Of a DNA stretch of 44,766 bases, positions 13,733 through 37,615 are shown piece by piece (position 1 is the first letter of the stretch; each line of letters opens with the position of its first letter). The notes below the pieces were generated by a model that was not told the DNA's origin, ran no database searches, and was given only the letters and a program-made list of their open reading frames with translations. Position numbers and translations under genes: made by a program. Origin of the DNA: Desulfobacterales bacterium (GTDB lineage Bacteria; Desulfobacterota; Desulfobacteria; Desulfobacterales; Desulfosalsimonadaceae); NCBI GenBank assembly GCA_029933295.1, contig JAOZOL010000001.1:1-44766 (forward strand). The letters are read 5' to 3'.

Positions 13733-13776
13733 AATATAAAGAGAGCTGCAAACATGTTTTACTTATAAAAGGCGAT

Positions 13777-17663: not shown

Positions 17664-19052
17664 TTACTCATGAATGGTTTTGTCCACATGGATATTGTAT
17701 TTTTTAAGACGATTATACAACGCAACCCGGCTGATTCCTAAAATTTTAGCCGCTTTTGATTTGTTCCCCATGGTTGAGGAAATGGCAGACATCAATTGTT
17801 TCCTTTCCTCATCACTGCCGGGTGGCTCCGGATGCTTAAATGGGGTATATTGTTTTTTTTGTTTTTTCAATAAATTGTCAGGCAAATGATCGGGAGTGAT
17901 TTCCCCTTCACGACACAACACAAAGGCGTATTCAATAATATTGATTAATTCTCGTACATTGCCCGGCCAGTGATATCCATATAACACGGCAAGAGCTTCC
18001 TTGCTCATCACTGAAACCGGTTTTCCGGTTTTAAGACGTATTCTGTTTAAAAATGTATTTATCAAAAGCGGGAGATCCTGTTTTCTTTTACGAAGCGGAG
18101 GCATATGAATGGGCAGCACACCGATGCGGTAAAACAAATCTTCACGAAAAGTACCTTTTTTAATGAGCTCCCCAAGGTCTTTATTGGTGGCTGAAATAAG
18201 CCGAACGTCTAAAGAAACGGATTGATTGTCACCCACTTTTTCAATTTTCTTTTCTTCCATGACCCGAAGCAGCTTTACCTGGGTGGACAATGGCATATCG
18301 CCTATTTCATCTAAAAAAATATCCCCTTTATGAGCCGCCTCAAACCGGCCGATACGTGTTTTCAAGGCACCGGTAAATGCGCCCTTCACATGCCCAAAAA
18401 GTTCGCTTTCAAGGAGTGATTCATTTAACGCGGCACAATTAACTTTCACAAAAGGGCCCTTTTTCCGATCACTTAAGTTATGTATAGCATTGGCAACAAG
18501 CTCTTTACCGGTGCCGCTTTCTCCATAAAGAATGACCGGAACATCAGATTTGGCAACGCTTGTAATCAGCTCAAACACCTGCTGAATGGCAGGAGATTTA
18601 CCTATCATGGACTGGAAGCTGTCTTTTGTACTCAATTCATTACGGAGATTTGAAATAACCGCTTCCATGGCCAATGCCTCGCTCAAATCCGTCAGTGTCT
18701 CCACCCCGCCGATAATTTTTCCGTCGCTGGATTTTAAAATCGTGGCATTTTTAAACACATTAACAGTGTCTCCGTTTTTTTTTTGAAGCTTACACCTGAT
18801 CTTTAAACGTTTTTTTTCAAAAAGCGCGCAAAAATGATCAGGGGATTGTTTTCTTTTAACAAAACACCTGTCGCAGTTTAATACACCGCAGGTGTTTCCC
18901 ACAAGCTCACGCTCTTTAAAACCTGTAAGGCGTACCATGGATTGATTAACGGAGATAATCATTCCTCTAGAATCGACAACCATAAGCGCTTCGGCCATGG
19001 TATCAATAATGGTTTTCCAGTACTGGTTCTGCTTAATCCCGAGTTGTTTCAT
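17664..19052 (-). CDS. sigma-54-dependent transcriptional activator, PAS-AAA+-HTH (no receiver domain)
   Basis: 462 aa. Cys-rich PAS domain, AAA+ core ([32 protein letters not shown]), Fis-type HTH. Its stop codon directly abuts the LpxR-like stop. Confidence 0.9.
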   Translation of the reverse strand: MKQLGIKQNQYWKTIIDTMAEALMVVDSRGMIISVNQSMVRLTGFKERELVGNTCGVLNCDRCFVKRKQSPDHFCALFEKKRLKIRCKLQKKNGDTVNVFKNATILKSSDGKIIGGVETLTDLSEALAMEAVISNLRNELSTKDSFQSMIGKSPAIQQVFELITSVAKSDVPVILYGESGTGKELVANAIHNLSDRKKGPFVKVNCAALNESLLESELFGHVKGAFTGALKTRIGRFEAAHKGDIFLDEIGDMPLSTQVKLLRVMEEKKIEKVGDNQSVSLDVRLISATNKDLGELIKKGTFREDLFYRIGVLPIHMPPLRKRKQDLPLLINTFLNRIRLKTGKPVSVMSKEALAVLYGYHWPGNVRELINIIEYAFVLCREGEITPDHLPDNLLKKQKKQYTPFKHPEPPGSDEERKQLMSAISSTMGNKSKAAKILGISRVALYNRLKKYNIHVDKTIHE

Positions 19053-19166: not shown

Positions 19167-19182
19167 TGGCATGATAATTGCT
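19167..19182 (+). promoter_or_regulatory. sigma-54 (-24/-12) promoter
   Basis: TGGCAT-GATAA-TTGCT matches the TGGCAC-N5-TTGCW consensus with correct GG/GC spacing. Divergent from the activator gene and 35-55 nt upstream of the first gene of the hdr cluster. Confidence 0.7.
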
Positions 19183-22509: not shown

Positions 22510-22588
22510 AATAATTACGAATTAATGGCAACTATCTGTTTATGATATTCATTATGGATAAACGGGCAGAGTAGTAGGAGAAAAAAAT

Positions 22589-23020
22589 ATGGATGAAAAA
22601 AAAGAGTTTACACCGTCAATTATTTACGGGCTGTGCAGCTGGTGTGGTACGGGCGGCTCTGAGACAGCCGGGGCAATGCATCTTCAGTATGCGGAGAATA
22701 TCCGGCCTTTTCGGGTTCCCTGCACAGGCGCCATTGATCCGGTTTATATTTTAAGGGCATTAATTGAAGGCGCGGACGGATTCGCCGTCAGTGGTTGTCA
22801 TCCCGGGGACTGCCATTTTGATTCAGGTAATTATCGTGCGCGAAGACGGACGGCGGTTTTAAAGAGCCTTTTAGATACTTTCGGGCTTGATTCCGAAAGG
22901 GTCTGGCTCAGATGGGTCGGCCACGGAGAAGGGAAACGATTTGCAGACACGGTCAATGAATTTAATGACCATATAAAAGAGATGGGGGGAAACCCTTTGG
23001 CTAAAAGAAGGGACACATAG
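22589..23020 (+). CDS. mvhD: MvhD-like (methyl-viologen-reducing hydrogenase delta subunit family) Fe-S protein
   Basis: 143 aa. CSWCGTGGSE…FRVPCTGAIDP…GADGFAVSGCHPGDCHF is the MvhD signature. Confidence 0.85.
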   Translation: MDEKKEFTPSIIYGLCSWCGTGGSETAGAMHLQYAENIRPFRVPCTGAIDPVYILRALIEGADGFAVSGCHPGDCHFDSGNYRARRRTAVLKSLLDTFGLDSERVWLRWVGHGEGKRFADTVNEFNDHIKEMGGNPLAKRRDT

Positions 23021-23103
23021 ATGCCGGCCCCAAAAAATGGTAGGGGCGGATCTGAGTGTCCACCCTTCCAGTACCAGATAAAACAAACAAGGGTGAGGAA
23101 AAT

Positions 23104-24240
23104 ATGAACAAGGGACTATGGATTGAAGGGCCGATAAAAAAAGGGATTCTGGACTTTTTAAACGGGCTTTTAGCGGATCAAAAAATTAAAGCAGTATTGA
23201 TGCCGGCCAAAAATAAGGGTGGCGATTCCTACGCATGGTTTTTAATGGAAAAAAACGGCATGCTCGACTCGGCGGACCCTGCCCCGCCGGTGATGACCAC
23301 CCAGGGTGCGAATGTTGTCAGCTATTTGACTAAAAAAGGTCCGGTTTGGGAAAAAACAGCGGTTTTGCTGCGTCCCTGTGAATACAGGGCTGTCATTGAA
23401 CTGGCCAAAATAAAACAGGTTGATCTGACTAATTTGGTGTTGATCAGTTTTGATTGCCCGGGAGCATTTCCGCTGGAAAAATATATAAATGGAGACCCCA
23501 AAAAACTGGATGAAATTTTTGACACATGCCTGGAAAAACAAACCGAACTGGAAGGTGCCAGAAATGTCTGTACTATTTGCCATCGTTTCAGCGGCACGGG
23601 TGCGGACATTGAAATCGGCCTGATTGGCGGTAAAGGTGAAGGTTTCTGGCTTGTTCCCGGAAGCAGACAGGGAGAAGAACTCATAGAAGGGGTTGCGGGC
23701 AGCAAAACGGACAATTTGGACGTAAGGGAAAACGCAATCAGCGAACGCACCATTTTGCAGGAAACAAAAAGAAACAACATGCTTGATTCTTTTCAGGAAA
23801 CCGTCATGGGGCCTGAAAACTTATTAAATACGCTTTCTTCCTGCATTAATTGTCATAACTGCAGCCGGGTATGCCCCATATGCTTCTGCCGGGAGTGCTA
23901 TTTTGACTCAAAAGCGTTAAGCAGCGAGGCTGACAATATACTTCAGCGGGCGCAGCGGAAAGGTGGTCTCAGGCTTCCGCCTGATTTGCTTTTGTTTCAT
24001 CTGGGACGGATGACCCATATGAGTTTGTCCTGCGTGTCCTGCGGAGCGTGTGAAGACGCCTGCCCGGCTGATGTGCCGGTATCAATGCTGTTTGCCCTGG
24101 CAGGTAGAAACACCCAGGCGGTTTTTGAATATGAACCAGGCCGAAGTCAGGATGAAGCTGTCCCGCATACGGTTTTCAAGTTTGAGGAATTAAAGGATTT
24201 TGAAACTCCTTATATAAAAGAGTATTCAAAGGAGCAATAG
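23104..24240 (+). CDS. Fe-S oxidoreductase subunit, AsrA/FrhB-FdhB-like, paralogue 1
   Basis: Motifs LRPCEYRAVIEL, CINCHNCSRVCPICFCRECYFDS and SCVSCGACEDACP. GAGG SD 5 nt before the 23104 ATG. The ORF is open from a GTG at 23056. Confidence 0.7.
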   Translation: MNKGLWIEGPIKKGILDFLNGLLADQKIKAVLMPAKNKGGDSYAWFLMEKNGMLDSADPAPPVMTTQGANVVSYLTKKGPVWEKTAVLLRPCEYRAVIELAKIKQVDLTNLVLISFDCPGAFPLEKYINGDPKKLDEIFDTCLEKQTELEGARNVCTICHRFSGTGADIEIGLIGGKGEGFWLVPGSRQGEELIEGVAGSKTDNLDVRENAISERTILQETKRNNMLDSFQETVMGPENLLNTLSSCINCHNCSRVCPICFCRECYFDSKALSSEADNILQRAQRKGGLRLPPDLLLFHLGRMTHMSLSCVSCGACEDACPADVPVSMLFALAGRNTQAVFEYEPGRSQDEAVPHTVFKFEELKDFETPYIKEYSKEQ

Positions 24241-25332
24241 ATGGAAACAATGATTGACAGCCGAATGATAATGACGGATTTTCTTGCGGCTCTTTTTGAC
24301 AAACTGGATGTAGCAGCAGTGGCTGCCATGTCTAAACTTCCGTCCGGCGAAAAAGCGGCATATACACTTTTTACGGATAAAAGTGGCCTGAAAGAATGCG
24401 TGCCCTTTTTTCCGGCAATGCCGGCAAATGCAGCACGGGCGATTTCAAAACTTACCCGGGAAGAAGCACCGTCAAAAACGGTAGCGGTATTTTTACGCCC
24501 TTGCGAGCTAAGAGCTTTAACTGAACTGATAAAAATCAAACAGGCGTCTTTGGACAACCTTTTGATCATCAGCTATGACTGTTCGGGCGTATTTCCTTTT
24601 CAGAAGATCAATTTATCGGATGAAACAAAATTAAATGCATACCAGGATGCGGTTTCAACCGGAAAAAACAGCGAAGGGATTCGGCCGGTATGCGCCGCAT
24701 GTACCAGGTTTACGCCCCGGGGCGCAGATATTGCCATATCAATTGTCGGACGAAGCGCAGACCAGCCCCTGGTGCTTTCGTTCCCTTCGGAAAAAGGGCA
24801 GACAGCAGCAAAACAGCTGGGCCTGGATGTTTCAAAAACAGTTGAAGCATCTCCGGCGGTAGAATCCCTGGCACGGGAAAGGAAAACAGCGGAAGAGGCA
24901 CTGACTGAGCAGGTGAATGAATCGCTTTCAGGTGCACAAGGGCTGGTAAATATTTTTGACCGATGCATTTCCTGCCATGCCTGCAGCTATGTGTGCCCTA
25001 TTTGTTATTGCAAGAATTGTTATTTTGACTCCCAGACCTTTGAATATTTCCCGGAAAGTTACTTTACCCGAATGACGGCAAAAGGCACGTTGCGGATGCC
25101 GGTGGACAGGGTATTGTTTCATCTGGGCAGGTTAAGCCACATGGGGATATCCTGCGTTGCGTGCGGGATGTGTGAGGATGTTTGCCCGGTAAATATCCCG
25201 GTTTCACAAATTTTTAAAACAGCAGGGAGCAAAGCCCAGGCCGTGTTTGACTATATTCCAGGCGAAAATTCCGATGACCCGTTGCCGCTGTTGGCGTATG
25301 CGGAGAACGAACTGGAAGAATTCGAGGACTGA
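24241..25332 (+). CDS. Fe-S oxidoreductase subunit, AsrA/FrhB-FdhB-like, paralogue 2
   Basis: 363 aa, collinear with the preceding gene (LRPCELRALTEL, CISCHACSYVCPICYCKNCYFDS, SCVACGMCEDVCP). The ATG immediately follows the upstream TAG. AAGGAG SD. Confidence 0.7.
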   Translation: METMIDSRMIMTDFLAALFDKLDVAAVAAMSKLPSGEKAAYTLFTDKSGLKECVPFFPAMPANAARAISKLTREEAPSKTVAVFLRPCELRALTELIKIKQASLDNLLIISYDCSGVFPFQKINLSDETKLNAYQDAVSTGKNSEGIRPVCAACTRFTPRGADIAISIVGRSADQPLVLSFPSEKGQTAAKQLGLDVSKTVEASPAVESLARERKTAEEALTEQVNESLSGAQGLVNIFDRCISCHACSYVCPICYCKNCYFDSQTFEYFPESYFTRMTAKGTLRMPVDRVLFHLGRLSHMGISCVACGMCEDVCPVNIPVSQIFKTAGSKAQAVFDYIPGENSDDPLPLLAYAENELEEFED

Positions 25333-25371: not shown

Positions 25372-25800
25372 ATGGCGAACAATGAAACAGATATAAAAAT
25401 TGTGGCTTTTTTGTGTAACTGGTGTACGTTTACCGCAGCCGATCTGGCCGGCACCAGCCGGCTTAAATACGCACCGAACATTAGAATTGTAAAGGTAATG
25501 TGCTCCAGCAGGATAGAGCCGGTATTTATTTTAAAAGCACTGCTTGACGGGGCAGATGGCGTATTGATTGGCGGTTGCGCCCCCGGCGACTGTCACTATT
25601 CCAAGGGAAATTTTTACGCCCGGCGAAAAATTGCTTTAGCCAAAACTCTGGCCGAAAGTGCGGGACTTGATTCTGACAGGATCAGGCTTTCCTGGATACC
25701 GGCGTCCGAAGGCCCTAAATTTGCACATGTGGTCAACGAATTTACGGAGCATATCAAAAATCTGGGGTACAATCCTGCCAGACGGGAGGTATATATATGA
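25372..25800 (+). CDS. mvhD: MvhD-like Fe-S protein (second copy)
   Basis: 142 aa. CNWCTFTAAD…VKVMCSSRIEP…GADGVLIGGCAPGDCHY. Confidence 0.85.
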   Translation: MANNETDIKIVAFLCNWCTFTAADLAGTSRLKYAPNIRIVKVMCSSRIEPVFILKALLDGADGVLIGGCAPGDCHYSKGNFYARRKIALAKTLAESAGLDSDRIRLSWIPASEGPKFAHVVNEFTEHIKNLGYNPARREVYI

Positions 25801-26342
25801 TGGCTGATTTAGTGTTACGCGACAGATTTTTTAAAAAATATCACGGACAGGAAATAGAAAACTGCATCCAGTGCGGGACATGTACCGGTAGCTGCCCGCT
25901 GGCACCGTATATGGATTACGGCCCACGGCAGTTGTTCGCCATGGTCAGGGAGGGAGACATGACAGAAGCGTTAAACGCAAATACCATGTGGTTTTGTGTT
26001 TCATGCTATAACTGCGTCGTAAAATGCCCCAGGGGGATTTCAATCACGGACCATATGTACTCTTTAAAAAAAATGGCAGCAGAAATCGGAATTAAACCGC
26101 CAAAAATGCTTCATTTGTATCAGTCGTTTAATGCACCGGTCGAAAAACACGGCAGGCTGACGGATGTGGCTGCCATGGCCGGATACAGCTTACGGCATCC
26201 CGGTGCAGCCTTCAGAAACATGCCTTTGGGGGTGAAGCTTGCCGCAAAAAAACGCTTGGAATTCAAACCCCGACCTGTTGACAATATAACGGGTTTTAAA
26301 AAAGTCATGGAAAAAGCAAAAGAGATAGAGAGGTTATCATGA
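25797..26342 (+). CDS. hdrC: heterodisulfide reductase subunit C
   Basis: 181 aa with 2x[4Fe-4S] motifs CIQCGTCTGSCP and CVSCYNCVVKCPRGI. ATGA overlap with mvhD. Confidence 0.85.
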   Translation: MMADLVLRDRFFKKYHGQEIENCIQCGTCTGSCPLAPYMDYGPRQLFAMVREGDMTEALNANTMWFCVSCYNCVVKCPRGISITDHMYSLKKMAAEIGIKPPKMLHLYQSFNAPVEKHGRLTDVAAMAGYSLRHPGAAFRNMPLGVKLAAKKRLEFKPRPVDNITGFKKVMEKAKEIERLS

Positions 26343-27181
26343 AATACGGTTTTTTCCCAGGATGCAGCTACAAGGGTGCTGCCGGATATAAAGAATCGAC
26401 CGAGGCCGTTTCACAACTGCTTGGCATTGAACTGGTTGAAATAAAAGACTGGAACTGCTGTGGAGCGACAAGTTACTGGAGTACGCAAAGTCTTGAGGCG
26501 TATGTTTTGCCGGCCCGGATTATGGCATTGGCTGAGAAGCAGGAGTTTTCCGAAATCGTCAACGTGTGTAACGCCTGTTATTCGACCCTTCGCAAGGCCC
26601 ATGAAAAATTGACTCAAGATAGTGACTTAAAGCAAAAAGTGAATCTGGCGCTTGCTGAAGAAGGGCTTACTTATTCGGGAAATCTAAAAATTCGGCATTT
26701 TATGGAAGTTATTGTAAACGACTTGAAAGCCGATGATATAAAAAAACATATCAAAAAAGACCTTTCCGGGCTCGTTGTGGCCCCGTATTATGGATGCCAG
26801 TTAAACCGGCCATGGGCGGACATTGATGATGCCTATTATCCGGTTTTGATGGATCGTCTCATTGAAATTGTTGGCGCTAAACCGCTAAAAAATTATTCTG
26901 CCAAAACAGAGTGCTGCGGCGCGGCACACATGGTTGCTCACAAGGATTTCTGCATACCGTTAAATAACCGTATCATAAAAGACGCCGTCAGCAAGGGCGC
27001 ACAAAGTATCTGCACCCTATGCCCTTTGTGTCAGCTCAATGTTGATTCCTCACAGCAAGGGCTTGGGCTTCCCAAGATGCCGGTTATCTTTTTTACTCAG
27101 TTGATGGGATTGGCTTTTGGGTTTTCTGAAAAGGATTTAATGTTAAATAAACTTTTAACGCCGTTTAAAATGGCTGTTTAA
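26339..27181 (+). CDS. hdrB: heterodisulfide reductase subunit B (two CCG domains)
   Basis: 280 aa. FFPGCSY…WNCCGA and YYGCQ…ECCGAAH…CPLCQ cysteine-rich CCG motifs. ATGA overlap with hdrC. Confidence 0.9.
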   Translation: MKYGFFPGCSYKGAAGYKESTEAVSQLLGIELVEIKDWNCCGATSYWSTQSLEAYVLPARIMALAEKQEFSEIVNVCNACYSTLRKAHEKLTQDSDLKQKVNLALAEEGLTYSGNLKIRHFMEVIVNDLKADDIKKHIKKDLSGLVVAPYYGCQLNRPWADIDDAYYPVLMDRLIEIVGAKPLKNYSAKTECCGAAHMVAHKDFCIPLNNRIIKDAVSKGAQSICTLCPLCQLNVDSSQQGLGLPKMPVIFFTQLMGLAFGFSEKDLMLNKLLTPFKMAV

Positions 27182-27201
27182 ATTTCTGGAGAATATCGAC
27201 C

Positions 27202-29211
27202 ATGAGAGAATCCATACCGAAAATAGGGGTTTATGTCTGTCATTGCGGCACAAACATTTCAGGCAAGGTGGACGTGGAGGCGGTATCTGAATATGCTTCC
27301 GGCCTTCCCCATGTAGTGGTTGCAAAAAATTTTAAATTTATGTGTTCCAATCCCGGTCAGGATCTGGTGATTGATGATATCAAGGCAAAGGGGCTAAACA
27401 GAGTAGTTGTGGCCTCATGCTCTCCAAGGATGCATGAAAAAACCTTCCGGAAGGCCTGCCAGACCGCAGGAATAAATCCGTATTATTTTCAAATGGCCTG
27501 TATCCGGGAACATGATTCATGGGTAACCGAAGATCCGGCTGCCGCCACCCAAAAAGCAAAGGATCTGGTCAGAGGTGCGGTGGCACGGGTTGCCCATCAT
27601 CAGAAATTGACTTCACGGGTGGTGGATATTAATCCCAATGTGCTGGTCATTGGAGGCGGAATTGCCGGCATACAGGCGGCATTGGATATAGCCGATGGCG
27701 GAAAGAAGGTCTATCTGGTGGAAAGGGACCCGTCCATTGGCGGGAATATGTCCAAGTTTGACAAGACATTCCCGACCCTGGATTGCGCGGCCTGTATCAG
27801 CACGCCGAAACTGGTGGCCGTGGGCCAGCATGAAAATATTGAAATGATGACCTACAGCGAGGTGGCCGATGTTTCCGGATTTGTGGGAAATTTCACCGTC
27901 AAGGTCCGGAAAAAACCAAGATATGTGGATGCTGAAAAATGTACCGGTTGCGGGGTTTGTACGGAAAAATGTCCCGCAAAGGTTCTTTCGGAATTTGACC
28001 ATGATCTGACTTACAGAAAGGCTATTTACACGCCGTTTCCGCAGTCGGTCCCCAACACCCGCGTCATTGATACGGAACATTGCCTTTTTTTCAAAAAAGG
28101 CAGATGCCGGGCGTGTGAAAAATTTTGTGAAGCCGATGCCATTGATTTTGACCAAAAAGAAGAGATTGTTGAAATCAATGTCGGCTCTATCATTATTGCC
28201 ACCGGGTTTGAAACATTTGATCCCACGCCTTTGACACAGTATGGGTTTGGACGGTATCCTGAAGTTTATTCCAGTATCCAGTTTGAGCGGATCAATAATG
28301 CCACCGGCCCCACTTCCGGCGAAATCGTCACAAAAGACGGAAAAAAGCCCAAAGCAGTCGCCATTATCCATTGCGTGGGGTCCAGGGACGAAAATCATAT
28401 GAAATACTGCTCCAGGGTCTGCTGCATGTATTCCATGAAGTTTGCGCATCTGGTCAGGGAAAAAACCGGGGCTGAAGTCTATGAATTTTACATTGACATT
28501 CGATCTCCCGGAAAAGGATATGAAGAATTTTATAACCGGCTTCAGGAAGAAGGAACACATTTTATCCGTGGCAAGGTCTCCCAGATTACCGATATGGTCG
28601 ATTCTCCAAAAGATGAGGGGAGGCTGACGGTCGTGGCGGAAGATACCCTGGCACGAAAGGTGCGACGAATTCCCGTGGATATGGTGGTCTTGAGTGTGGG
28701 CCTGAAACCATCCTCCGGAATCGAGGATATTGCGCGAATGGTGGGGATTTCCGTTGATACGGATGGATGGATTAATGAGCTGCATCCCAAGCTGGGGCCT
28801 TTGGCAACCCCGTCAGACGGTATTTTTGTTGCCGGCTGCTGCCAGGGTCCAAAGGACATCCCTGACTCCGTAGCCCAGGGCCAGGGTGCGGCAGGTGAGG
28901 CCCTATCGCTTATCAGCCGGGGTAAACTTGAGATTGAAGCGGCAGTTTCAACCATTGACCCGGAAAGATGCATGGGATGCCGCCAGTGCGAAGAAGTCTG
29001 TGTATACGGGGCTATTTCATATCACCCGGCATTAAATGTCTGCGAGGTGAATGAAGCGATCTGCAAGGGCTGCGGTAATTGTACTGCCACATGTCCGAAC
29101 AAGGCCATTGAGCTGAAGCATTTTAATAATGATGAACTCATGGCCGAGGTGGAGGGACTGATGTTTGGACCGGCTGATTTTCATCACAGCCCGGACGAGC
29201 AGGCAGCATGA
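27202..29211 (+). CDS. hdrA: heterodisulfide reductase subunit A
   Basis: 669 aa. N-terminal VYVCHCGTNISG cluster motif, VIGGGIAGIQAALD FAD motif, inserted and C-terminal ferredoxin domains. FPTLDCAACI carries Cys, not an in-frame UGA. Confidence 0.92.
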   Translation: MRESIPKIGVYVCHCGTNISGKVDVEAVSEYASGLPHVVVAKNFKFMCSNPGQDLVIDDIKAKGLNRVVVASCSPRMHEKTFRKACQTAGINPYYFQMACIREHDSWVTEDPAAATQKAKDLVRGAVARVAHHQKLTSRVVDINPNVLVIGGGIAGIQAALDIADGGKKVYLVERDPSIGGNMSKFDKTFPTLDCAACISTPKLVAVGQHENIEMMTYSEVADVSGFVGNFTVKVRKKPRYVDAEKCTGCGVCTEKCPAKVLSEFDHDLTYRKAIYTPFPQSVPNTRVIDTEHCLFFKKGRCRACEKFCEADAIDFDQKEEIVEINVGSIIIATGFETFDPTPLTQYGFGRYPEVYSSIQFERINNATGPTSGEIVTKDGKKPKAVAIIHCVGSRDENHMKYCSRVCCMYSMKFAHLVREKTGAEVYEFYIDIRSPGKGYEEFYNRLQEEGTHFIRGKVSQITDMVDSPKDEGRLTVVAEDTLARKVRRIPVDMVVLSVGLKPSSGIEDIARMVGISVDTDGWINELHPKLGPLATPSDGIFVAGCCQGPKDIPDSVAQGQGAAGEALSLISRGKLEIEAAVSTIDPERCMGCRQCEEVCVYGAISYHPALNVCEVNEAICKGCGNCTATCPNKAIELKHFNNDELMAEVEGLMFGPADFHHSPDEQAA

Positions 29212-29436
29212 ATGGATTATTCAACCTGAAAGTATAAATTTTAATTTTTTAAGTGGTTGCTATTTGTAAAAAGGTGATTAATATTAGCTGAATTATCGTC
29301 TGCATGGATATTTCATGCAGCCATATGGGCAACTCATGGCGGGTTGTTATTTTAATATTTTAAAGCTGTTACGAAATGTGTGATTGCACGGTGATTGGTT
29401 TGAATCTCATGCAGTAATCACCTGGAGGTCAAAAAA

Positions 29437-29886
29437 GTGAAATATTTTCCGGCAAAAACAAAAATTTGTTTTATTTTGGCTTTTCTTTTTTTCGCCGGCA
29501 TAGGGATTTTGTCCCTGATGGGCGCATGTCCTATAGACAAGATCGAATGCAGTAAAAAAAGAGAACCGGTGGGCTTTCCCCATGAGATGCATATGGAATC
29601 TTATGATTGTGAGGTTTGCCATCATGTATATGATGAGAATAAAAATAATGTCATAGATACCACGGAACTTTACGAAGACAATCCGGACATTATGTGTTCG
29701 TCCTGTCATGCGTCAGATAATACAATTAATACTCAGGAAGCATTTCACCGGAAATGTTTGGGATGTCACAACGAGGAAGCAACAATGGGCCAGGCTGCGA
29801 TTCCGACCATGTGCAATGACTGCCATCGTCCGGAATCCGAAGTTTTAAATGAATATGATATGATTATTAGAGGGCAAAATGATTAA
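29437..29886 (+). CDS. tetraheme cytochrome c3-family protein with an N-terminal signal/anchor
   Basis: GTG start with GGAGG 8 nt upstream. Hydrophobic N-terminus. FPHEMHM followed by four CxxCH sites (CEVCH, CSSCH, CLGCH, CNDCH). Confidence 0.8.
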   Translation: MKYFPAKTKICFILAFLFFAGIGILSLMGACPIDKIECSKKREPVGFPHEMHMESYDCEVCHHVYDENKNNVIDTTELYEDNPDIMCSSCHASDNTINTQEAFHRKCLGCHNEEATMGQAAIPTMCNDCHRPESEVLNEYDMIIRGQND

Positions 29887-30553
29887 AGCAAAGTCAAAAC
29901 CGATTGAAGAAATTGTAGATTATATTACGCCATATCGAGATGTCTTGATCGTTGGCTGCGGGGGGTGCGTGTCCGTCTGTCTTGCCGGTGGTCAAAAAGA
30001 AGTGAATATATTGCAAACCGAGCTGGAACTATTAAGGGATAAAACAAAAACAGATGGTCAGTTTTCCGGGTTTACGGTTGAGCGACAATGCAATGAACAA
30101 TACCTGGGCGTTCTAGATGATATGGTGGAAACAGCGGACTGCGTTCTCTCCATGGCCTGCGGTGCCGGTGTACAGCTTCTTGCTGAAAGATATCCCAACA
30201 AACCGGTTTTTCCGGCGGTCAACACCATTGCCATTGGTGTTGATTTGGATGTCGGTCTGTATGAAGAACGGTGCCGCGCATGCGGTGAATGTGTGTTGGC
30301 ATATACGGCAGGCATCTGTCCTGTTACTCGATGTGCCAAGGGTCTGTTTAATGGACCTTGCGGCGGGACCAATGGGGATAAATGTGAAATCAGCCCGGAT
30401 ATTAACTGTGCCTGGCATGAAATATATACCCGCCTCAAAGCCCAGGACCGGCTGGAAGATATTTTAAAAATCCACCCGCCCATGCAATGGCAAAATCAAA
30501 TCAAGCGAACCATCGTCCAAAAAGGATATGAACAGAGATATCATCAGGAATAA
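29879..30553 (+). CDS. MetV-like protein (methylene-THF reductase C-terminal domain family, MTHFR_C)
   Basis: 224 aa. VGCGGCVSVC, CRACGEC, CPVTRCAKGLFNGPCGGTNGDKCE…CAWHEIY. The ATG overlaps the cytochrome stop. Confidence 0.75.
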   Translation: MIKAKSKPIEEIVDYITPYRDVLIVGCGGCVSVCLAGGQKEVNILQTELELLRDKTKTDGQFSGFTVERQCNEQYLGVLDDMVETADCVLSMACGAGVQLLAERYPNKPVFPAVNTIAIGVDLDVGLYEERCRACGECVLAYTAGICPVTRCAKGLFNGPCGGTNGDKCEISPDINCAWHEIYTRLKAQDRLEDILKIHPPMQWQNQIKRTIVQKGYEQRYHQE

Positions 30554-30555
30554 AT

Positions 30556-31272
30556 ATGAATATGACAACTTTTTCGACAATTTTTTCCAATCCGGTTTTT
30601 TTAAATTTCATCAAAGGCCCCATGGTTTGGCTCTCTTTTATTATATTCGGCCTGGGTCTGATTGTTCAAACCTTCAGGTTGCTTAAATTAACTCAAATAA
30701 AAGAAGCTCGGAGGGTTGCACCGGAGGAGGATTTGTCCCCGCAAACCGATTTATCCGGGTGGGAACGTTTTACGAGATATCTCGCGTTTCGGAGAGTTTC
30801 CGTTCTGGGGTCCAACGCCTGCCTGGTACTGATCAGCGTTATTTTTCATGTGTGTCTGGTGGTGACCCCCATATTTGTTATGGGTCATAATGTTATGCTG
30901 GACACATCGTTTGGAATCAATTTGATATCTTTCCCCGAACAGATATCGGATATTCTGACAAAGTTTGTGATAGCCGGCGGCCTGATATTTTTAATGCGAA
31001 GGCTTTTTCTGCGGCGTGTACGGATGATTTCAACGGTAAATGATTTTATATTACTCTTTGTTGCTGTTGCGCCGTTTTTGACCGGTTTTCTGGCATATCA
31101 TCATATTTTTAACTATCAGGTAATGATTGTATTGCATATCCTTTGCGGTGAGTTGATGCTGATCCTGATACCGTTTTCAAAATTTTTTCATATGGTTTTT
31201 TTCTTTATCAGCCGGTTTATGATTGTCAGTGAACATAGTATGGGCACACCAAAACGGTCATGGCAATTTTGA
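30556..31272 (+). CDS. NarI/DsrM/TmcC-like dihaem cytochrome b membrane subunit
   Basis: 238 aa with about 5 TM helices. His pairs H-x12-H (FHVCL…MGH) and H-x17-H (LHIL…FFH) sit in predicted TM2 and TM5. Only 2 nt after the MetV-like stop. Confidence 0.6.
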   Translation: MNMTTFSTIFSNPVFLNFIKGPMVWLSFIIFGLGLIVQTFRLLKLTQIKEARRVAPEEDLSPQTDLSGWERFTRYLAFRRVSVLGSNACLVLISVIFHVCLVVTPIFVMGHNVMLDTSFGINLISFPEQISDILTKFVIAGGLIFLMRRLFLRRVRMISTVNDFILLFVAVAPFLTGFLAYHHIFNYQVMIVLHILCGELMLILIPFSKFFHMVFFFISRFMIVSEHSMGTPKRSWQF

Positions 31273-31299
31273 ATCAGAAATAATATTGTGGAGCGGTAA

Positions 31300-31680
31300 A
31301 TGGGAACAACAACAGAAATCAATACAGACACAATCCAATCAATTTTAAAACAAAACAAAAAACAAATAAAACTCGGTCTGGCCATGTGCGCCCATTGCAG
31401 CCTGTGCGCGGAAAGCTGTTTTTTATTTGTGTCACATGACAATGATCCGGAGTATATGCCGTCCTATAAATTTATCAATTCCATCGGTAAATTATATAAA
31501 AAAAAGGGGAAAGTCAGCAGACAGGTACTTGAAGATATGCGGGATCTTGTTTTTGAAAAATGTGCGCTTTGTACCCGCTGTTACTGCCCCTTCGGCATTG
31601 ATATTCCGGCATTGATCACTCTTGGCCGGAACGTGTGTCGATCTCAGGGCCTGTTTCGGGAATATGACAGGGAATGGTGA
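31300..31680 (+). CDS. 2x[4Fe-4S] ferredoxin-domain protein resembling the N-terminus of HdrD/DsrK/TmcB, without a CCG domain
   Basis: 126 aa. CAHCSLCAESC … CALCTRCYCPFGIDIP separated by a helical insert. Terminates at TGA TAA. Confidence 0.65.
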   Translation: MGTTTEINTDTIQSILKQNKKQIKLGLAMCAHCSLCAESCFLFVSHDNDPEYMPSYKFINSIGKLYKKKGKVSRQVLEDMRDLVFEKCALCTRCYCPFGIDIPALITLGRNVCRSQGLFREYDREW

Positions 31681-31710
31681 TAAAACGTTAACATCTCTGG
31701 GGTATATCAA

Positions 31711-32070
31711 ATGAAATGTGAGAGATGTAAAGAGAATATTAAAACAGGAGAGGAAAGGGAATTTCAAGGACAGACGTTGTGTGAGGATTGTTACCTTGAT
31801 GCCCTTTCTCCTGTGAAAGCGTGCGATCCATGGGCAGTACACTGTGCTAAATCTTTTTCAAAAAAAGATGGTGCTGATATTGAAATGACTGAAACCCAGT
31901 CAAATATATTACAAATTTTAAAAAATACCGACGGCCTAACTCCGGAAATCATATCAGAGAAGCTTCAAATAAAACCCTCTGACCTTGAAAGAGAAATTGC
32001 AACGCTCCGGCATATGGAGAAGGTCCGGGGTGAACTGCGGGATGGAAAGAAAATAATTCGTTTATGGTGA
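31711..32070 (+). CDS. zinc-ribbon plus FeoC-like winged-helix small protein (putative regulator)
   Basis: 119 aa. CERC…CEDC zinc ribbon and a C-terminal wHTH-like segment (ILQILKNTDGLTPEIISEKLQIKPSDLEREIATL). No firm family assignment. Confidence 0.4.
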   Translation: MKCERCKENIKTGEEREFQGQTLCEDCYLDALSPVKACDPWAVHCAKSFSKKDGADIEMTETQSNILQILKNTDGLTPEIISEKLQIKPSDLEREIATLRHMEKVRGELRDGKKIIRLW

Positions 32071-32151
32071 CTTGTTTAAAACGGTAGTGACTTTCACGGT
32101 AGCATATTTTTTTAACATATAATATTTTAAGCATATGCTCTTTCTATCAGA

Positions 32152-32178
32152 TTGACAACAAACCAAAGCTGTTATAAT
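32152..32178 (+). promoter_or_regulatory. sigma-70-type promoter candidate
   Basis: Perfect TTGACA and TATAAT hexamers, but only a 15-bp spacer. Lies 45 nt upstream of the 32223 ATG, which has an AGGAGG SD. Confidence 0.4.
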
Positions 32179-32222
32179 TTTTTTAATATTATGTCTCAGC
32201 CAAAAAACCATAGGAGGTCTAA

Positions 32223-33665
32223 ATGAAAGAATTTTCAACTGATATACTTATCGTGGGCGGCGGGCCCGGGGGAATTTTTACATCAACGGCACTGATGGCA
32301 AACAAAATAACTGATTTTAAGGTGGTATGTGATGAACCGGAAGTGGTCTGTCGTTGCAACATTCCCTATGGGATCGGTAAAAAATTTTTAAACGACATTA
32401 ACGATGCGGTAACCTCCCATAAAACATTTCTGCCCAACTTCGAAGACGTAGGGATCGTGGGCAGGATTAACCGGATTGACCATCAGAACAAGACAGCCCA
32501 TGGCACATTTCTAAAATTAGATGGTGAGTTTAAGGTTGCATACAGCAAACTCATCCTTGCCATGGGCGGCCAGGCGTCGCTTCCGCCCATCAAGGGTGCC
32601 ATTGACACGGATTATGACGGTTCCAATCCCGTGGGAGAGGTTGTATATTATAAGGGGAAAAGCTATGATAAGGCTGCGTTAAGAGATAACGTGGTCGTGG
32701 TTCGAAGTGTGACCGACGCCCGGCGTATTGATGCCATATGCGGCACCGGATTGACCGTCGCGGTGATCGGCACCGGCCTGGTGGGGATCGAAATTATTGA
32801 TAACCTGATCATCCGGGGCAACAAAGTCGAAGTGGTTGAGATATTACCCCATCTTGTGAGCTTTCTGGATGCGGACATGTCCATTTACCTGGAAGAAGCC
32901 CTAAAAAATGAAGGCGCAAATATTCATCTTGGGCAACCGTGTACCGAGGTGGGAGATGGGTATATCATCGTGGGGGACAAGAAAATTGAGGCCGACCTTG
33001 TGGTCATTGGTGCGGGTGTTGCTTCTGATATTCAGATGGCAAAACAGGTGGGGTGCGAGATTGGAAAGACCGGCGGTGTCCGGGTGAATGAACGCTGCCT
33101 CACCAGTGTACCGGATGTTTATGCCATTGGCGATCTTATAGAAATAGATGACGCCATATTTTCAGACCCGGTCCAGTTGCAGCTGCTTCCCAACGTCATG
33201 ATGCAGGGGGCGCTTATCGCCAAGCATTTTAAGGGAATTGATCTGGAAGGTCCTCTGGCTGTTGGGGCCGGTATGTCCCATGCTGCGGATTTATTCTGGG
33301 GGTTTGCCGGATACAGCGAAGGCATGGTTGAATCCCGGAATTTAAAAGTTCTGGCGGAAAAAATTGAGCTTTTTACCGCAGAACATGCATCTCCCTATGC
33401 TAAGAAGGCCTGGTACAAAATGGTGGTTTCAGCAGAAGATCAGGGTACGGTTAAGAAAGGGCAGATTATTGGTTTTCAGGCGATCACACAGGAAAAGCAT
33501 TTGGGCGACCTCATGGTCCGCTGGGCGGATATCATCGGTGAAAAAGAGACAATATGGGATCTGCCAAAGCACAATTGGATTCATCAGCCCCTGGTGGGCA
33601 ACCCAGGCAGCAATGCCTATATCCTGACGTTTTTTACCAAGTTTACGGCAAAGCTTGAAAAATAA
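32223..33665 (+). CDS. FAD-dependent pyridine nucleotide-disulfide oxidoreductase (CoADR/Nox-related)
   Basis: 480 aa. GGGPGG FAD motif, a second dinucleotide motif VIGTGLVGIE, AIGD, and a candidate redox Cys in VVCRCNIPYG. Confidence 0.8.
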   Translation: MKEFSTDILIVGGGPGGIFTSTALMANKITDFKVVCDEPEVVCRCNIPYGIGKKFLNDINDAVTSHKTFLPNFEDVGIVGRINRIDHQNKTAHGTFLKLDGEFKVAYSKLILAMGGQASLPPIKGAIDTDYDGSNPVGEVVYYKGKSYDKAALRDNVVVVRSVTDARRIDAICGTGLTVAVIGTGLVGIEIIDNLIIRGNKVEVVEILPHLVSFLDADMSIYLEEALKNEGANIHLGQPCTEVGDGYIIVGDKKIEADLVVIGAGVASDIQMAKQVGCEIGKTGGVRVNERCLTSVPDVYAIGDLIEIDDAIFSDPVQLQLLPNVMMQGALIAKHFKGIDLEGPLAVGAGMSHAADLFWGFAGYSEGMVESRNLKVLAEKIELFTAEHASPYAKKAWYKMVVSAEDQGTVKKGQIIGFQAITQEKHLGDLMVRWADIIGEKETIWDLPKHNWIHQPLVGNPGSNAYILTFFTKFTAKLEK

Positions 33666-34062: not shown

Positions 34063-35403
34063 ATGAATTTTTTGATCATCGGAGCAGATGCGGCTGGAAT
34101 GAGTGCCGCCAGCAGGGCCAAAAGAAGCATGCCGGAGATGGCGGTCACGGTTTTGGAGATGACCCATGATGTTTCCTATAGTGCCTGCGGTATGCCGTAT
34201 AATATTGCGGCCCCGGAAAAAGCCATTGAAGACCTGGTGGTCCGGGAAGCGGATGTTTTCAGAAAAAAACAGGGCATTAATCTTTTGACCGGGCATCGGG
34301 TGGATGCCATTTTTCCCAAAGAAAAGACGGTTTCCGGGACAACACATAAAGGTGAAAAATTTGAATTTTCCTATGATAAGCTGTTGATTGCCACCGGCGG
34401 CTCACCCATTGTCCCGGATCTTCCCGGATTTGATCTCCCCGGGGTTCTGGGCCTGAAAAGTCTGGATCACGGCCGTAAAATCAAGGCCTTTATTGATGAA
34501 CACAATGTAAAAAAAGCAGTGATTATCGGTATGGGATATATCGGTCTTGAAATGTGTGAAGCCCTGCGCAGCCGTTCAATAGAAGTTGCCATGGTAAAAC
34601 CGAACCCTCGGTTTCTTCCCTGGATGACGCAGGAATTGTCTGAAAAAGTTCAAAAAGAAGTGAAAGCCAATGGGGGCAAGCTTCATCTGGGACATGCCGT
34701 CCAAAAAATTAAACCGGCAAACACCGGTTTGTCCGTTGTCTGTGAAGACCTTAGCCTTGATGCGGACATGGTGATCGTTGCCATCGGCATCACCCCCAAC
34801 AGTGAATGCGCCGTAAACGCCGGGCTTGAAATCAGCATCAGAAACAGCATCAGCGTTGATCGCGGACTCAAAACATCCGATGAAAGTATCTATGCTGCCG
34901 GGGACTGCGCAGACGCTTATCATGTGGTGACCGGTGAAAAAACATTTATACCGCTTGCTTTGCGTGCCAATCGGGCCGGGTGGGCGGTGGCGGATAATAT
35001 CTGCGGCAAACCAACCGAACTTGAAGGGGTGGTCGGCACATCCGTGTTCAAGGTGTTTAATCTTCAAATTGCACGCACCGGCCTTACATCAAAAGAATCG
35101 CTAAAGTATGGTTTTGATCCGGCAGAAGTCGTGATAAAAACCCGGTCCCGTGCCCATGCGCATCCGGGTTCAACCCCCATTCAGGTACACCTGATCGGTG
35201 ACAAAAAATCAGGCCGGTTGCTGGGCGCCCAGATGGTTGGTAAAGAAGGGGTTGCCCACCGGATTAATGCAGTGGCGGTTGCCCTGCATAACCGGATGAC
35301 GGTTGAACGGTTCAGCCAAACCGACCTTGCTTATGCCCCGCCGTTCAGCCCGGTATGGGATCCCCTGCTCACTGCGGCCAATCAGCTTTTGAAGCGGATG
35401 TAG
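34063..35403 (+). CDS. CoA-disulfide reductase / NADH oxidase family flavoprotein
   Basis: 446 aa. IIGADAAGMSAASRA, active-site SYSACGMPYNI, second GxGxxG motif IIGMGYIGLE, AAGDCA. Confidence 0.85.
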   Translation: MNFLIIGADAAGMSAASRAKRSMPEMAVTVLEMTHDVSYSACGMPYNIAAPEKAIEDLVVREADVFRKKQGINLLTGHRVDAIFPKEKTVSGTTHKGEKFEFSYDKLLIATGGSPIVPDLPGFDLPGVLGLKSLDHGRKIKAFIDEHNVKKAVIIGMGYIGLEMCEALRSRSIEVAMVKPNPRFLPWMTQELSEKVQKEVKANGGKLHLGHAVQKIKPANTGLSVVCEDLSLDADMVIVAIGITPNSECAVNAGLEISIRNSISVDRGLKTSDESIYAAGDCADAYHVVTGEKTFIPLALRANRAGWAVADNICGKPTELEGVVGTSVFKVFNLQIARTGLTSKESLKYGFDPAEVVIKTRSRAHAHPGSTPIQVHLIGDKKSGRLLGAQMVGKEGVAHRINAVAVALHNRMTVERFSQTDLAYAPPFSPVWDPLLTAANQLLKRM

Positions 35404-35437: not shown

Positions 35438-37615
35438 TTAAAACGCGACTTCCCCACCTATGCTAAAGCACCTGCCCGGCGCCGGAAAATCGTATTCTTC
35501 TTCATAATCCGTATCAAATATATTTTCAATGCCAAGTGTGAGGAACCCGTCAAATCCATTTTTCCAGACCGGATACCGGACCAGGCAGTTGACAGTGATA
35601 AAATCATCCAGCTTTTTTAATTCTGTGGGCGTTTGGCTGAAAACAGACGTTCCATCCGGATTGGCATCACCGGTCAGCGGGTTGGTGATTGAATCATCAA
35701 GAAACGGTACTTCCCGTTCATCGACCCATTTAAAACTCAGCCGCACCAGCAGGCCATCTGTTTGTTTGTACAAAATACCGCAGTTGAATTTTTTTTCCGG
35801 CAGTTCGGACAGCGAATCAGTTAAATTGTTGCTGGCGTCCAACACATCCCCGGTCTTTTTCGTATCCTGCCAGGTAAAATTGGCAAATCCGTAAATTTTG
35901 TTAAAAATTTTACCGTCAATGTCCAATTCAATGCCTTTAAAATCCACCCGGTCGATATTGTAAATCACCCTGCTGGGTGCGTATCCGAAAATCCAGCGGA
36001 TATAGTCATCCACCTGGTAATGGTAGGCGCTTAATTTTACGGTCATATCCGGCAGGGCCTGCCACTGGCTGCCAATTTCATATTCCATGGCATCTTCATA
36101 GGATAGTTCGTTGCGGACGACATCCGTCCGTTCATCCACTTCAGGCCGGTAACCGGCATAATACCAGTAAAATGCCGGATTGTCCGGGTACCGGGTGGCG
36201 CGGGCGGCCCTGGCATACAGGTTGAGATCCGGCATTGGCCGGTACATGATCCCGGCTTTGGGCATCAGCACGGATTCGTTAAATTGCACTGTCTGCCGGT
36301 CATATCCGGCGGGCTTGCCGTTGGTATACCCGGTGACCACGTCTACCTCACGGTTCCCGTAATAATCGTCAAACCTCACCCCCATATACAAATTCAGAAA
36401 GTCCGTAACCGCCCATTCATCATCGATATACGCGCCATGAAATCGGGAGGCGTTCCATTCATCAGCTCCCTCTAAAGGGAGTTTGGTAAAATAATCCTGC
36501 CGGACAAATGTATTATCAGCGCCGCCGAATCCCTGATAATTACCATCTGCGCCAAATCCGATTAAATGCCGGGACAAAGGCCAGCAGAATTTTGCTACCC
36601 ACCCCCATGACCTGTCCGGAGCGGCTTCGCGTTCCAGTACCTTTTCCCCGAGCTCATTAGAATAGATATAATCTGTGCGGTCTTCATTGTTTAAATAAAG
36701 GGTGATGGTTGAATCCACCGCTCCCATTTGTTTTACAGACATCAAATCGATTTCGGTTCGTATTTTATTAAAATAGCTGCCGTCACCATGCCGGTCGCCG
36801 GAAGGAAATTGAATCCCCGGCCCGGTGAGATAGGTGCCCGCATGTTCCGGAAAATTACTGTCAAAATCCGTATCGGCCTCACGATTTTCCACCGGCATGG
36901 AATAATCCCCCTGCGTATGGCGGATGGAGAACTGCAATTGACCATCATTGCCCCAGTCATAGTATAACCGACCGTTGATGGTATAGCGTTCAGCCTCACT
37001 GTTTCGAAGATGTCCGTCTGTCCGGTGATATCCTGCGGAAAAAACAGACCCAAACGGCCCGGTTTTACCGGAAGCCGTTCCGGTAAAAGCAAATGTGTTA
37101 TATCGTTTATAGCCGGTATAAATCTCGGCGTGAAATGTATCCTTCGGCGGGGCGGGGCGCATATTGATGGTGCCGCCCAACGTATTGCCGTATTTTGCTG
37201 AAAAACCGCCTTTGCCGATTTCAACCGATTCAAAATTACCGGTGGAAAGGGCGCTCCAGTCCACGAAAAATCCGCCCATAACTCCGGTACCGTTTAAAGG
37301 GCGGCCATTGATCATTACCTGGGTTCGCTGTTCATCCAGGCCACGAATGCGGACCTGACTGCTTTTGGGGGTGAGGATGGATCGTCGCTGGATATCAAGC
37401 CCTGCTGCTTCGTCTAAAATGTCCGGAATCGTCGAAACAACCGGTTTTTGGGTTTCTTTTACCGGCACTTCCTGTTTGCTGACTTCTGCCGTGGGTGCCC
37501 TTTTGCCGGTCACAATAATTTCATCCAGCTCATAGGCAGAATCCTCCGCCAGGGCACAAACTGACACCAATAATATGGACAGCATGACACCAGCACGCAT
37601 TTTTAATGCTTTCAT
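35438..37615 (-). CDS. TonB-dependent outer-membrane receptor
   Basis: 725 aa with a signal peptide, a TonB-box/plug region (DEIIVTGKR…, IRGL), a long beta-barrel and a terminal aromatic residue (…GGEVAF). Confidence 0.9.
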   Translation of the reverse strand: MKALKMRAGVMLSILLVSVCALAEDSAYELDEIIVTGKRAPTAEVSKQEVPVKETQKPVVSTIPDILDEAAGLDIQRRSILTPKSSQVRIRGLDEQRTQVMINGRPLNGTGVMGGFFVDWSALSTGNFESVEIGKGGFSAKYGNTLGGTINMRPAPPKDTFHAEIYTGYKRYNTFAFTGTASGKTGPFGSVFSAGYHRTDGHLRNSEAERYTINGRLYYDWGNDGQLQFSIRHTQGDYSMPVENREADTDFDSNFPEHAGTYLTGPGIQFPSGDRHGDGSYFNKIRTEIDLMSVKQMGAVDSTITLYLNNEDRTDYIYSNELGEKVLEREAAPDRSWGWVAKFCWPLSRHLIGFGADGNYQGFGGADNTFVRQDYFTKLPLEGADEWNASRFHGAYIDDEWAVTDFLNLYMGVRFDDYYGNREVDVVTGYTNGKPAGYDRQTVQFNESVLMPKAGIMYRPMPDLNLYARAARATRYPDNPAFYWYYAGYRPEVDERTDVVRNELSYEDAMEYEIGSQWQALPDMTVKLSAYHYQVDDYIRWIFGYAPSRVIYNIDRVDFKGIELDIDGKIFNKIYGFANFTWQDTKKTGDVLDASNNLTDSLSELPEKKFNCGILYKQTDGLLVRLSFKWVDEREVPFLDDSITNPLTGDANPDGTSVFSQTPTELKKLDDFITVNCLVRYPVWKNGFDGFLTLGIENIFDTDYEEEYDFPAPGRCFSIGGEVAF

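Follow-up and report, generated by a model that had tools for sequence, protein, structure and literature searches.

A membrane-bound methylenetetrahydrofolate reductase (MTHFR) linked to cytochromes or quinones has been postulated for acetogens since the 1980s, and to our knowledge no physiological electron partner has been established for this enzyme in sulfate reducers, and that in acetogens is disputed. Here, we analyze a four-gene module at positions 29437-31680 of a 44,766-nucleotide stretch of DNA from a Desulfobacterales bacterium of the family Desulfosalsimonadaceae (contig JAOZOL010000001.1), a stretch that we refer to as the window. The module encodes a cytochrome c3, a MetV homologue, a predicted dihaem cytochrome b and a two-cluster ferredoxin, and brings together two known kinds of system, a Tmc-type membrane complex and a MetFV-type MTHFR, in what appears to be a new combination. 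We lean towards the view that it forms a Tmc-like conduit with MetV and the flavoprotein MetF as its cytoplasmic head, an assembly that would act as a membrane-bound methylene-/methyl-tetrahydrofolate (THF) oxidoreductase.

Bacterial MTHFRs have been classified into five groups, the E. coli, 2S, 3S, 6S and X types, none of which has membrane subunits; the X type, which employs NuoEFG, occurs in Desulfobacterales and Chloroflexi (PMC8515935). The MetFV-containing types, namely 2S (C. ljungdahlii), 3S (A. woodii MetFV-RnfC2), 6S (Moorella and Sporomusa MetFV-HdrABC-MvhD) and X (NuoEFG-MetFV), are soluble or peripheral and have neither transmembrane (TM) nor haem subunits (PMC8515935, PMC8578096, PMC9430772). 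The reduction of NAD+ with methyl-THF is an endergonic reaction; a link of MTHFR to the membrane or to quinones has been proposed, and a membrane-integral subunit was not found in acetogens (PMC9430772, PMC6895022, PMC8578096). According to one review, genomes gave no evidence for a membrane localisation of MTHFR, for which a membrane-integrated protein would be needed (PMC8578096). The module shares with the described MetFV-type enzymes a MetV carrying the complete Cys set and, in relatives of the window, a MetF encoded in the same cluster; unlike them, it includes a cytochrome b, a cytochrome c3 and a dedicated ferredoxin. With the 6S type, the window has in common an mvhD-hdrCBA set beside metV on the same strand, whereas metF is absent from its cluster and a weak hairpin lies in the spacer between hdrA and the module. 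Methylene-THF respiration in Sporomusa ovata and Thermacetogenium phaeum likewise involves a proposed reversible link of MTHFR to cytochromes and quinones. In those organisms the link was inferred from activities and a dedicated membrane subunit is not known, whereas the module is known from genes alone.

On the membrane side, the closest described system is TmcABCD of Desulfovibrio vulgaris, with HmcABCDEF as a larger relative. For three parts of Tmc the module encodes predicted counterparts, namely a tetrahaem cytochrome c3, a NarI-like dihaem cytochrome b and a two-[4Fe-4S] domain, and both operons begin with the cytochrome c3 gene. They differ in that the ferredoxin of the module is a separate protein, metV occupies the position of tmcB, and the operon of most relatives includes metF. 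Since the module lacks CCG domains, no DsrC or heterodisulfide chemistry is predicted for it, unlike for Tmc. DsrMK and HmeCD, which are HdrDE-like, also pair a NarI-type cytochrome b with a cytoplasmic protein containing the same two-cluster ferredoxin domain; in contrast to the module, DsrK and HdrD possess a catalytic CCG domain, and neither cytochrome c3 nor MetV is present. In full-text searches of the accessible literature, which does not cover subscription-only reviews, a MetFV complex that includes cytochrome subunits was nowhere described, in line with the first-pass annotation of this DNA, whose author knew of no complex of such composition.

The four-gene module and its products

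The module consists of four tightly packed open reading frames (ORFs):

29437-29886, + strand: cytochrome c3 gene; GTG start, GGAGG 8 nt upstream
29879-30553, + strand: MetV gene; 8-nt overlap with the cytochrome c3 gene
30556-31272, + strand: cytochrome b gene; 2-nt gap after the MetV gene
31300-31680, + strand: ferredoxin gene; 27-nt gap after the cytochrome b gene, ends TGA TAA

We searched the encoded proteins with Pfam and NCBIfam models, assessed ligand conservation in alignments of orthologues (cytochrome c3, n=69; MetV, n=82; cytochrome b, n=78; ferredoxin, n=71) and derived TM topology from hydropathy and the positive-inside rule. The first protein matched the cytochrome c3 family (PF02085, 2.4e-10) and the NCBIfam TmcA model (1.7e-15), the latter with 57 bits against a cut-off of 114, as a homologue and not an equivalog. 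Its four CxxCH motifs are invariant together with four further histidines (His49, His52, His63 and His104), which fits a bis-His tetrahaem c3. A single N-terminal hydrophobic segment, residues 10-28, is predicted to serve export or anchoring of what should be a periplasmic, TmcA-like protein. Following this segment, Cys31 represents a possible lipobox that is kept only in close relatives (25% overall).

The second protein matched the 'MTHFR C-terminal' family (PF12225/DUF5981) with an E-value of 6.9e-36, contains 13 conserved Cys residues and has no predicted TM segment. It aligns end to end with two MetVs encoded directly before metF (39% and 57% identity), every Cys being kept, and sequence comparison thus identifies it as a full-length homologue of MetV, the Fe-S subunit (annotated Zn) of MetFV-type reductases. 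In an AlphaFold2 (AF2) model, the N-terminal alpha/beta domain (residues 1-118) was confidently predicted; a Foldseek search with the model yielded only generic alpha/beta folds at E >0.01 and was uninformative.

For the third protein, the NCBIfam TmcC model was matched over nearly its whole length (2.1e-53; 181 bits, cut-off 240), followed by HmcE (4.9e-46), whereas Pfam Nitrate_red_gam narrowly missed its cut-off (2.3e-4; 21.3 versus 22.9 bits) and TIGR narI reached 5e-3. Five TM helices were predicted in N-out/C-in orientation, with His98 and His111 on TM2 (13 residues apart) and His194 and His212 on TM5 (18 apart). All four histidines are invariant, also in a 30-sequence alignment that reaches a protein named TmcC. 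Given the topology, His111 and His194 should lie near the periplasmic face and His98 and His212 near the cytoplasmic face, as in NarI. The five helices, their orientation and the His pairs on helices II and V are all shared with NarI, although the sequence similarity is marginal and the partner proteins are unrelated to NarGH. Consistent with this likeness, the top eight PDB matches that Foldseek returned for the AF2 model (pLDDT 78) were all NarI, at a probability of 1.00 and a modest TM value of ~0.5. The protein is accordingly classed as a predicted dihaem cytochrome b of the TmcC/HmcE (NarI-like) family. In public annotation, this subunit appears as 'hypothetical protein' or 'nitrate reductase gamma subunit', and the MetV of the module as 'MTHFR C-terminal domain-containing protein' or 'ferredoxin'.

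The fourth protein aligned only with N-terminal parts of the NCBIfam models HmcF (1.7e-28, positions 37-152 of 457) and TmcB (3.4e-26, positions 20-137 of 430) and also matched DsrK (7e-12). Eight cysteines (Cys30, 33, 36, 40, 88, 91, 94 and 96), arranged as CxxCxxCxxxC and CxxCxxCxC-P, are invariant, and the protein is predicted to be a cytoplasmic 2x[4Fe-4S] ferredoxin of 126 aa equal to the N-terminal domain of TmcB, HmcF and DsrK. A profile search for the CCG domain (PF02754) in the ferredoxin gene and the next ORF gave no match. We also considered a truncated or frameshifted tmcB, which was ruled out: four called homologues, on which the length range rests, measure 125-134 aa, the cysteines are invariant and the downstream ORF is unrelated. 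Because length and Cys pattern are maintained in this way, the ferredoxin should be a genuine stand-alone subunit.

All NCBIfam scores fell below the equivalog cut-offs, and the window proteins are therefore relatives of Tmc subunits rather than Tmc itself. A gene for TmcD, the tryptophan-rich fourth Tmc subunit, was present neither in nor beside the window cluster, where the next ORF encodes a 119-aa protein. When combined with the MetF flavoprotein, the ligand sets of MetV, ferredoxin, cytochrome b and cytochrome c3 would make up a plausible continuous cofactor chain from the cytoplasm to the periplasm. The first-pass annotation had proposed a Tmc-type membrane module in which MetV replaces the CCG subunit and whose partner could be either a MetF from another part of the genome or the neighbouring Hdr complex, and had read the four packed genes as an anchored protein with four CxxCH sites, a MetV-type protein, a five-TM protein with NarI-like His pairs and a ferredoxin that stops before any CCG domain. 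ORF boundaries and spacing agree with that description, the profile matches and invariant ligands bear out each of the four assignments, and the module as a whole finds further support in its synteny.

Conservation of the module and its linkage to metF

MetV has thousands of relatives, the closest named ones being annotated as Desulfobacterales, Thermodesulfobacteriota or 'Deltaproteobacteria'. We scanned one genome per GTDB species, which gave 533 stretches encoding relatives, fetched the best 80 and obtained 78 non-redundant loci from Desulfobacterales and allies, mostly metagenome-assembled genomes (MAGs); individual loci are denoted by L numbers. These loci were searched by tblastn with the window proteins and a Desulfoluna MetF. 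The four-gene set recurs in essentially every locus with a long enough contig, far beyond chance, and the cytochrome b and ferredoxin genes accompany metV wherever the contig reaches far enough. The synteny on which the first-pass reading depended thus holds across the Desulfobacterales.

In Desulfoluna butyratoxydans and a Thermodesulfobacteriota MAG, the order cytc3-metV-cytb-fd is directly followed by a metF gene (PF02219). Altogether, metF lies within the cluster in 42 of the 78 loci, arranged as follows:

cytc3-metV-cytb-fd-metF (type A): 31 loci
metF-cytb-fd-cytc3-metV: 8 loci
cytb-fd-cytc3-metV-metF: 1 locus
metF divergent upstream: 1 locus
metF divergent, upstream of the cytochrome c3 gene: 1 locus (L012)

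The cluster metF encodes a genuine MTHFR homologue, as judged from PF02219 and from hits to MTHFRs in the PDB down to 4e-13. Type A is represented by the cultured Desulfoluna butyratoxydans, D. limicola and D. spongiiphila as well as by MAGs assigned to Desulforapulum autotrophicum, Desulfosudis oleivorans, Desulfotignum and Desulfobacula. In this arrangement, cytb and fd stand between metV and metF, whereas metV is directly upstream of metF in the described MetFV types. Outside the subclade to which the window belongs, metF is found in the cluster in 41 of 47 evaluable loci, in two main gene orders, and what flanks the five-gene unit in one lineage is unrelated to its flanks in another. The linkage to metF survives both permutation of the gene order and unrelated flanks, which strongly indicates that the five genes act together as a functional unit.

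The same linkage bears on the possibility that the module is a generic Tmc paralogue, which would conduct electrons across the membrane between periplasmic cytochromes or menaquinol and a general acceptor in the cytoplasm, for instance ferredoxin or DsrC, with MetV as a mere Fe-S relay and the adjacency of metF reflecting co-regulation. The strong homology to TmcA, TmcC and the N-terminus of TmcB would suit such a role, as would the use of ferredoxin by C. ljungdahlii MetFV (PMC8515935). Moreover, L003, L004 and L025 combine the module with a CCG protein: in place of the small ferredoxin, they have (L003 9497-12102) an octahaem cytochrome of the tetrathionate-reductase family (TIGR04315, 1e-113) and a 399-aa Fer4+CCG protein. 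We nevertheless judge this explanation to be improbable. The linkage to metF is retained through operon permutation at the 41 loci, MetV is otherwise known only as a partner of MetF, and its Pfam family owes its name to fusions with the C-terminus of MTHFR. In addition, Desulfobacula toluolica Tol2 has its genuine Tmc at a separate locus, with the order D-C-B-A, a CCG-containing TmcB and a candidate TmcD of 418 aa, and Desulfobacula MAGs carry the module. In L019, the ferredoxin is kept next to an octahaem cytochrome called as two ORFs (85 and 349 aa), and no CCG match was found.

Several divergent MTHFR paralogues were observed close to the module. In Desulfobacula, L080 (2200-3099, - strand) and L086 (2163-3062, - strand) encode one with 23-24% identity beside HdrC/HdrB-like genes, and in L082 a paralogue of 36% identity (4257-5147) takes the metF slot of the module while a separate metV-metF pair is located 4 kb away. 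With regard to earlier records, the genome paper of Db. autotrophicum HRM2 lists 'MetF-ABC' in the legend of its Fig. 1, unexplained in the text, which may be an early, undescribed sighting of the module. The 'TmcBCA' of HRM2 was considered as well and is probably not the module, given the gene order and CCG-containing TmcB of the genuine Tol2 Tmc locus. In strain Tol2, TOL2_C33270/33280 (MetF6 and an 'uncharacterized protein') both belong to the constitutive proteome and might correspond to genes of the module.

The metF-less subclade

Several observations weigh against a MetF-dependent membrane oxidoreductase. Profile and tblastn searches found no MTHFR-family ORF in the 44.7-kb window, and the immediate upstream neighbours of its module are Hdr-type genes rather than metF. 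The window falls into a subclade of ~25 loci (MetV identity 68-94%) that lack an adjacent metF, save for the divergent one in L012. Outside this subclade, six of the 47 evaluable loci are without metF, and three of these six, from Desulfohalobiaceae MAGs (L068, L074, L081), contain cytb-fd-metV with neither cytochrome c3 nor an adjacent metF. On the structural side, the Cys-rich half of the MetV AF2 model has a pLDDT <50, and when the PDB was searched with the MetV sequence, no relative appeared up to an E-value of 1, which leaves no solved MetV for comparison. Finally, the synteny is that of the best 80 of 533 matches, mostly MAGs, and the neighbour-joining (NJ) tree of MetV sequences carries no support values. 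As a side observation, the Desulfohalobiaceae loci represent a reduced form of the module outside the Desulfobacterales.

In the NJ tree, the MetVs of the module form one tight clade, well apart from canonical MetV (39% identity), which precedes metF without membrane genes. The metF-less group forms a monophyletic branch within the diversity of metF-linked sequences, suggesting that metF has left the operon in the subclade of the window. Its members are MAGs of Desulfobacteraceae, Desulfococcaceae, Desulfosalsimonadaceae and Desulfosudaceae, one of which harbours three paralogous copies. Among metF-linked module MetVs, 97 positions show a conservation of 95% or more; the window MetV retains all 97 of them, and the alignment revealed no positions that discriminate metF-less from metF-linked forms; hence, there is no sequence sign of a changed partner. 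The Desulfosalsimonadaceae members have free-standing four-gene operons, and their metF-less loci share an upstream yjbQ with a metF-linked locus, which suggests a simple relocation of metF.

The absence of metF could alternatively mark the window copy as a decaying remnant, that is, a non-functional leftover of the five-gene operon. We regard this as very improbable, as none of the four ORFs is disrupted and their spacing is tight and translationally coupled, every cofactor ligand is conserved, the full set of conserved MetV positions is retained, and the subclade has ~25 members, with three paralogous copies in a single MAG.

For the window, the main rival to a MetF-dependent oxidoreductase arises from the genes immediately upstream, which the first-pass annotation had likewise read as mvhD-hdrCBA:

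25372-29211, + strand: mvhD-hdrC-hdrB-hdrA, directly upstream of the module; Pfam and NCBIfam matches
29212-29436, + strand: spacer between hdrA and the cytochrome c3 gene, 225 nt; GGAGG ribosome-binding site

According to this rival, the subclade module docks onto MvhD-HdrABC, a flavin-based bifurcating unit, to give either a membrane-anchored form akin to the MetFV-HdrABC-MvhD enzyme of the Moorella type or an Hdr complex that uses MetV only as Fe-S adaptor and acts on another substrate. Apart from the short distance and shared strand, it draws on the nearest relatives of the window, L008 and L089, where two FrhB-like genes and MvhD-HdrCBA precede the module and which have the block from HdrL to the module in common, the upstream HdrL-like part being whole in L089 and partial in L008. 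Other subclade members carry Hdr-type, FdhA/FrhB or DsrE genes at the same spot. In L007 (84-6017), these encode a molybdopterin enzyme resembling FdhA, FrhB, an Fe-S protein of 596 aa whose N-terminus is hydrophobic, and an HdrB-like protein; in L013 (222-6517), MvhD, two HdrA-like proteins, an HdrC-like protein and DsrE. Furthermore, metVF is linked to hdrCBA-mvhD in Moorella, Sporomusa and Thermacetogenium, for which a membrane connection via Hdr/MvhD has been proposed. On the other hand, the upstream partner varies within the subclade, from HdrCBA through another HdrB-like set and HdrA pairs to a divergent metF, the Desulfosalsimonadaceae operons have no Hdr genes nearby, and the sequence of MetV has not shifted away from that of metF-linked forms. 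A terminator-like hairpin, though weak, additionally separates hdrA from the module (29328-29348). Weighing these points, we consider an Hdr-coupled variant unlikely.

The spacer also contains a perfect 7-bp inverted repeat, CTGCATG-N7-CATGCAG, at 29300-29320, and CATGCAG occurs again at ~29408-29414. Repeat and hairpin may constitute an operator or attenuator. Counts of promoter-like and terminator-like elements in 29100-32300 were not above shuffled expectation.

Proposed electron path

We infer that the five proteins would assemble into one complex, in which the periplasmic tetrahaem cytochrome c3, the five-helix dihaem cytochrome b and the cytoplasmic two-cluster ferredoxin form the conduit. 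MetV would provide the cytoplasmic head in place of the disulfide-reducing CCG domain of TmcB and would be joined by MetF, whose gene belongs to the operon in the majority of relatives and presumably lies elsewhere in the genome of the window organism. In the oxidative Wood-Ljungdahl direction of complete oxidisers, electrons would pass from methyl-THF to the MetF flavin, the MetV clusters and the ferredoxin clusters, then to the haem b near the cytoplasm (His98/His212) and on to that near the periplasm (His111/His194). The final acceptor could be menaquinone, cytochrome c3 with the periplasmic cytochrome pool that feeds Qrc, Qmo and Dsr, or both. The redox potential of methyl-THF (E0' ~ -200 mV) lies below that of menaquinone (~ -74 mV). 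As methyl-THF oxidation cannot reduce NAD+ unaided, a transfer to the menaquinone or cytochrome c3 pool would solve this problem. In the reductive, autotrophic direction, the wire would be reversed, such that periplasmic oxidation of H2 or formate drives methylene-THF reduction with scalar proton separation; any such energy coupling would be analogous to measurements on Sporomusa ovata membranes (PMC9430772).

A broader proposal, which we put forward tentatively and hold with less than even confidence, is that MetF-MetV-Fd-cytochrome b-cytochrome c3 represents a sixth, membrane-integral type of MTHFR that is widespread in complete-oxidising Desulfobacterales. It would supply the long-missing acceptor route for methyl-THF oxidation, towards menaquinone or periplasmic cytochromes, and render methylene-THF reduction respiratory and energy-conserving during autotrophy. 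The window variant would then comprise the membrane socket plus MvhD-HdrABC, as a membrane-anchored version of the Moorella-type enzyme, and would suggest a membrane carrier as the second redox partner of the Moorella-type enzyme itself. If true, this would add a new type to the MTHFR classification and extend the Tmc/Hmc/Dsr family of membrane complexes from sulfate reducers by one member. It would also alter estimates of the ATP yield of those complete oxidisers by which a large part of the organic carbon of marine sediments is mineralised, and explain the reduction of periplasmic cytochromes in Desulfobacteraceae that have no periplasmic hydrogenases and formate dehydrogenases. Because an operon with membrane subunits lies next to metV and metF, a decades-old question of Wood-Ljungdahl bioenergetics becomes testable in cultured organisms: the module is conserved in dozens of Desulfobacterales species, among them cultured strains such as the three Desulfoluna species.

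Genomic surroundings

The remaining features of the window are as follows:

67-2135: acyl-CoA dehydrogenase and BKACE-family beta-keto acid cleavage enzyme, at the left window end
7729-9492: fhs (profile match)
11645-14565: RACo (reductive activator of corrinoid proteins) and DUF1638 protein, 16 kb upstream of the module
17664-19052, - strand: sigma-54 activator, divergent from the HdrL-like gene
19519-22509, + strand: HdrL-like 996-aa fusion with ferredoxin domains and a pyridine-nucleotide-disulfide oxidoreductase domain
19519-25332: HdrL-like protein, MvhD and two paralogous FrhB-like Fe-S proteins, before the second MvhD-HdrCBA set
31711-32070, + strand: 119-aa protein with N-terminal CxxC...CxxC (Zn-ribbon-like) and winged-helix-like C-terminal half
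32223-33665 and 34063-35403: two CoA-disulfide-reductase/NADH-oxidase-like (CoADR-like) flavoproteins, downstream of the module
35438-37615, - strand: TonB-dependent receptor, after the flavoproteins

The first and last of these entries appear unrelated to the module. By contrast, fhs, RACo and DUF1638 mark the neighbourhood as Wood-Ljungdahl related, and profile matches confirm the earlier placement of fhs upstream of a module without metF in the window. The proximity of RACo and DUF1638 ties the subclade to corrinoid and methyl-transfer metabolism; both flank the module in the L003/L025 variant (L003 3599-5683 and 14945-15601), and DUF1638 also lies beside the module in L019 (5088-5732).

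The HdrL-like gene opens a long same-strand gene string reaching 35403. A sigma-54-type promoter-like site (TGGCATGATAATTGCT, 19167-19182, + strand), with one mismatch to TGGCAC-N5-TTGCW, is positioned between the sigma-54 activator and hdrL, upstream of hdrL and not of the module. The consensus was not enriched in the window (18 hits versus 25 expected by chance), and only the site at 19167 looks meaningful.

The 119-aa protein gave only weak Pfam hits (MarR, HTH_24, LIM). Since its homologues recur after the module in L011 (68%) and in L003, L004 and L025 (60-61%), it is a candidate dedicated regulator. The CoADR-like flavoproteins could serve as NAD(P)H entry point. The second of them has neighbours of the module as homologues in L008 (86%) and in L019 (78%), and in L003 and L025 a distant copy lies ahead of the module.

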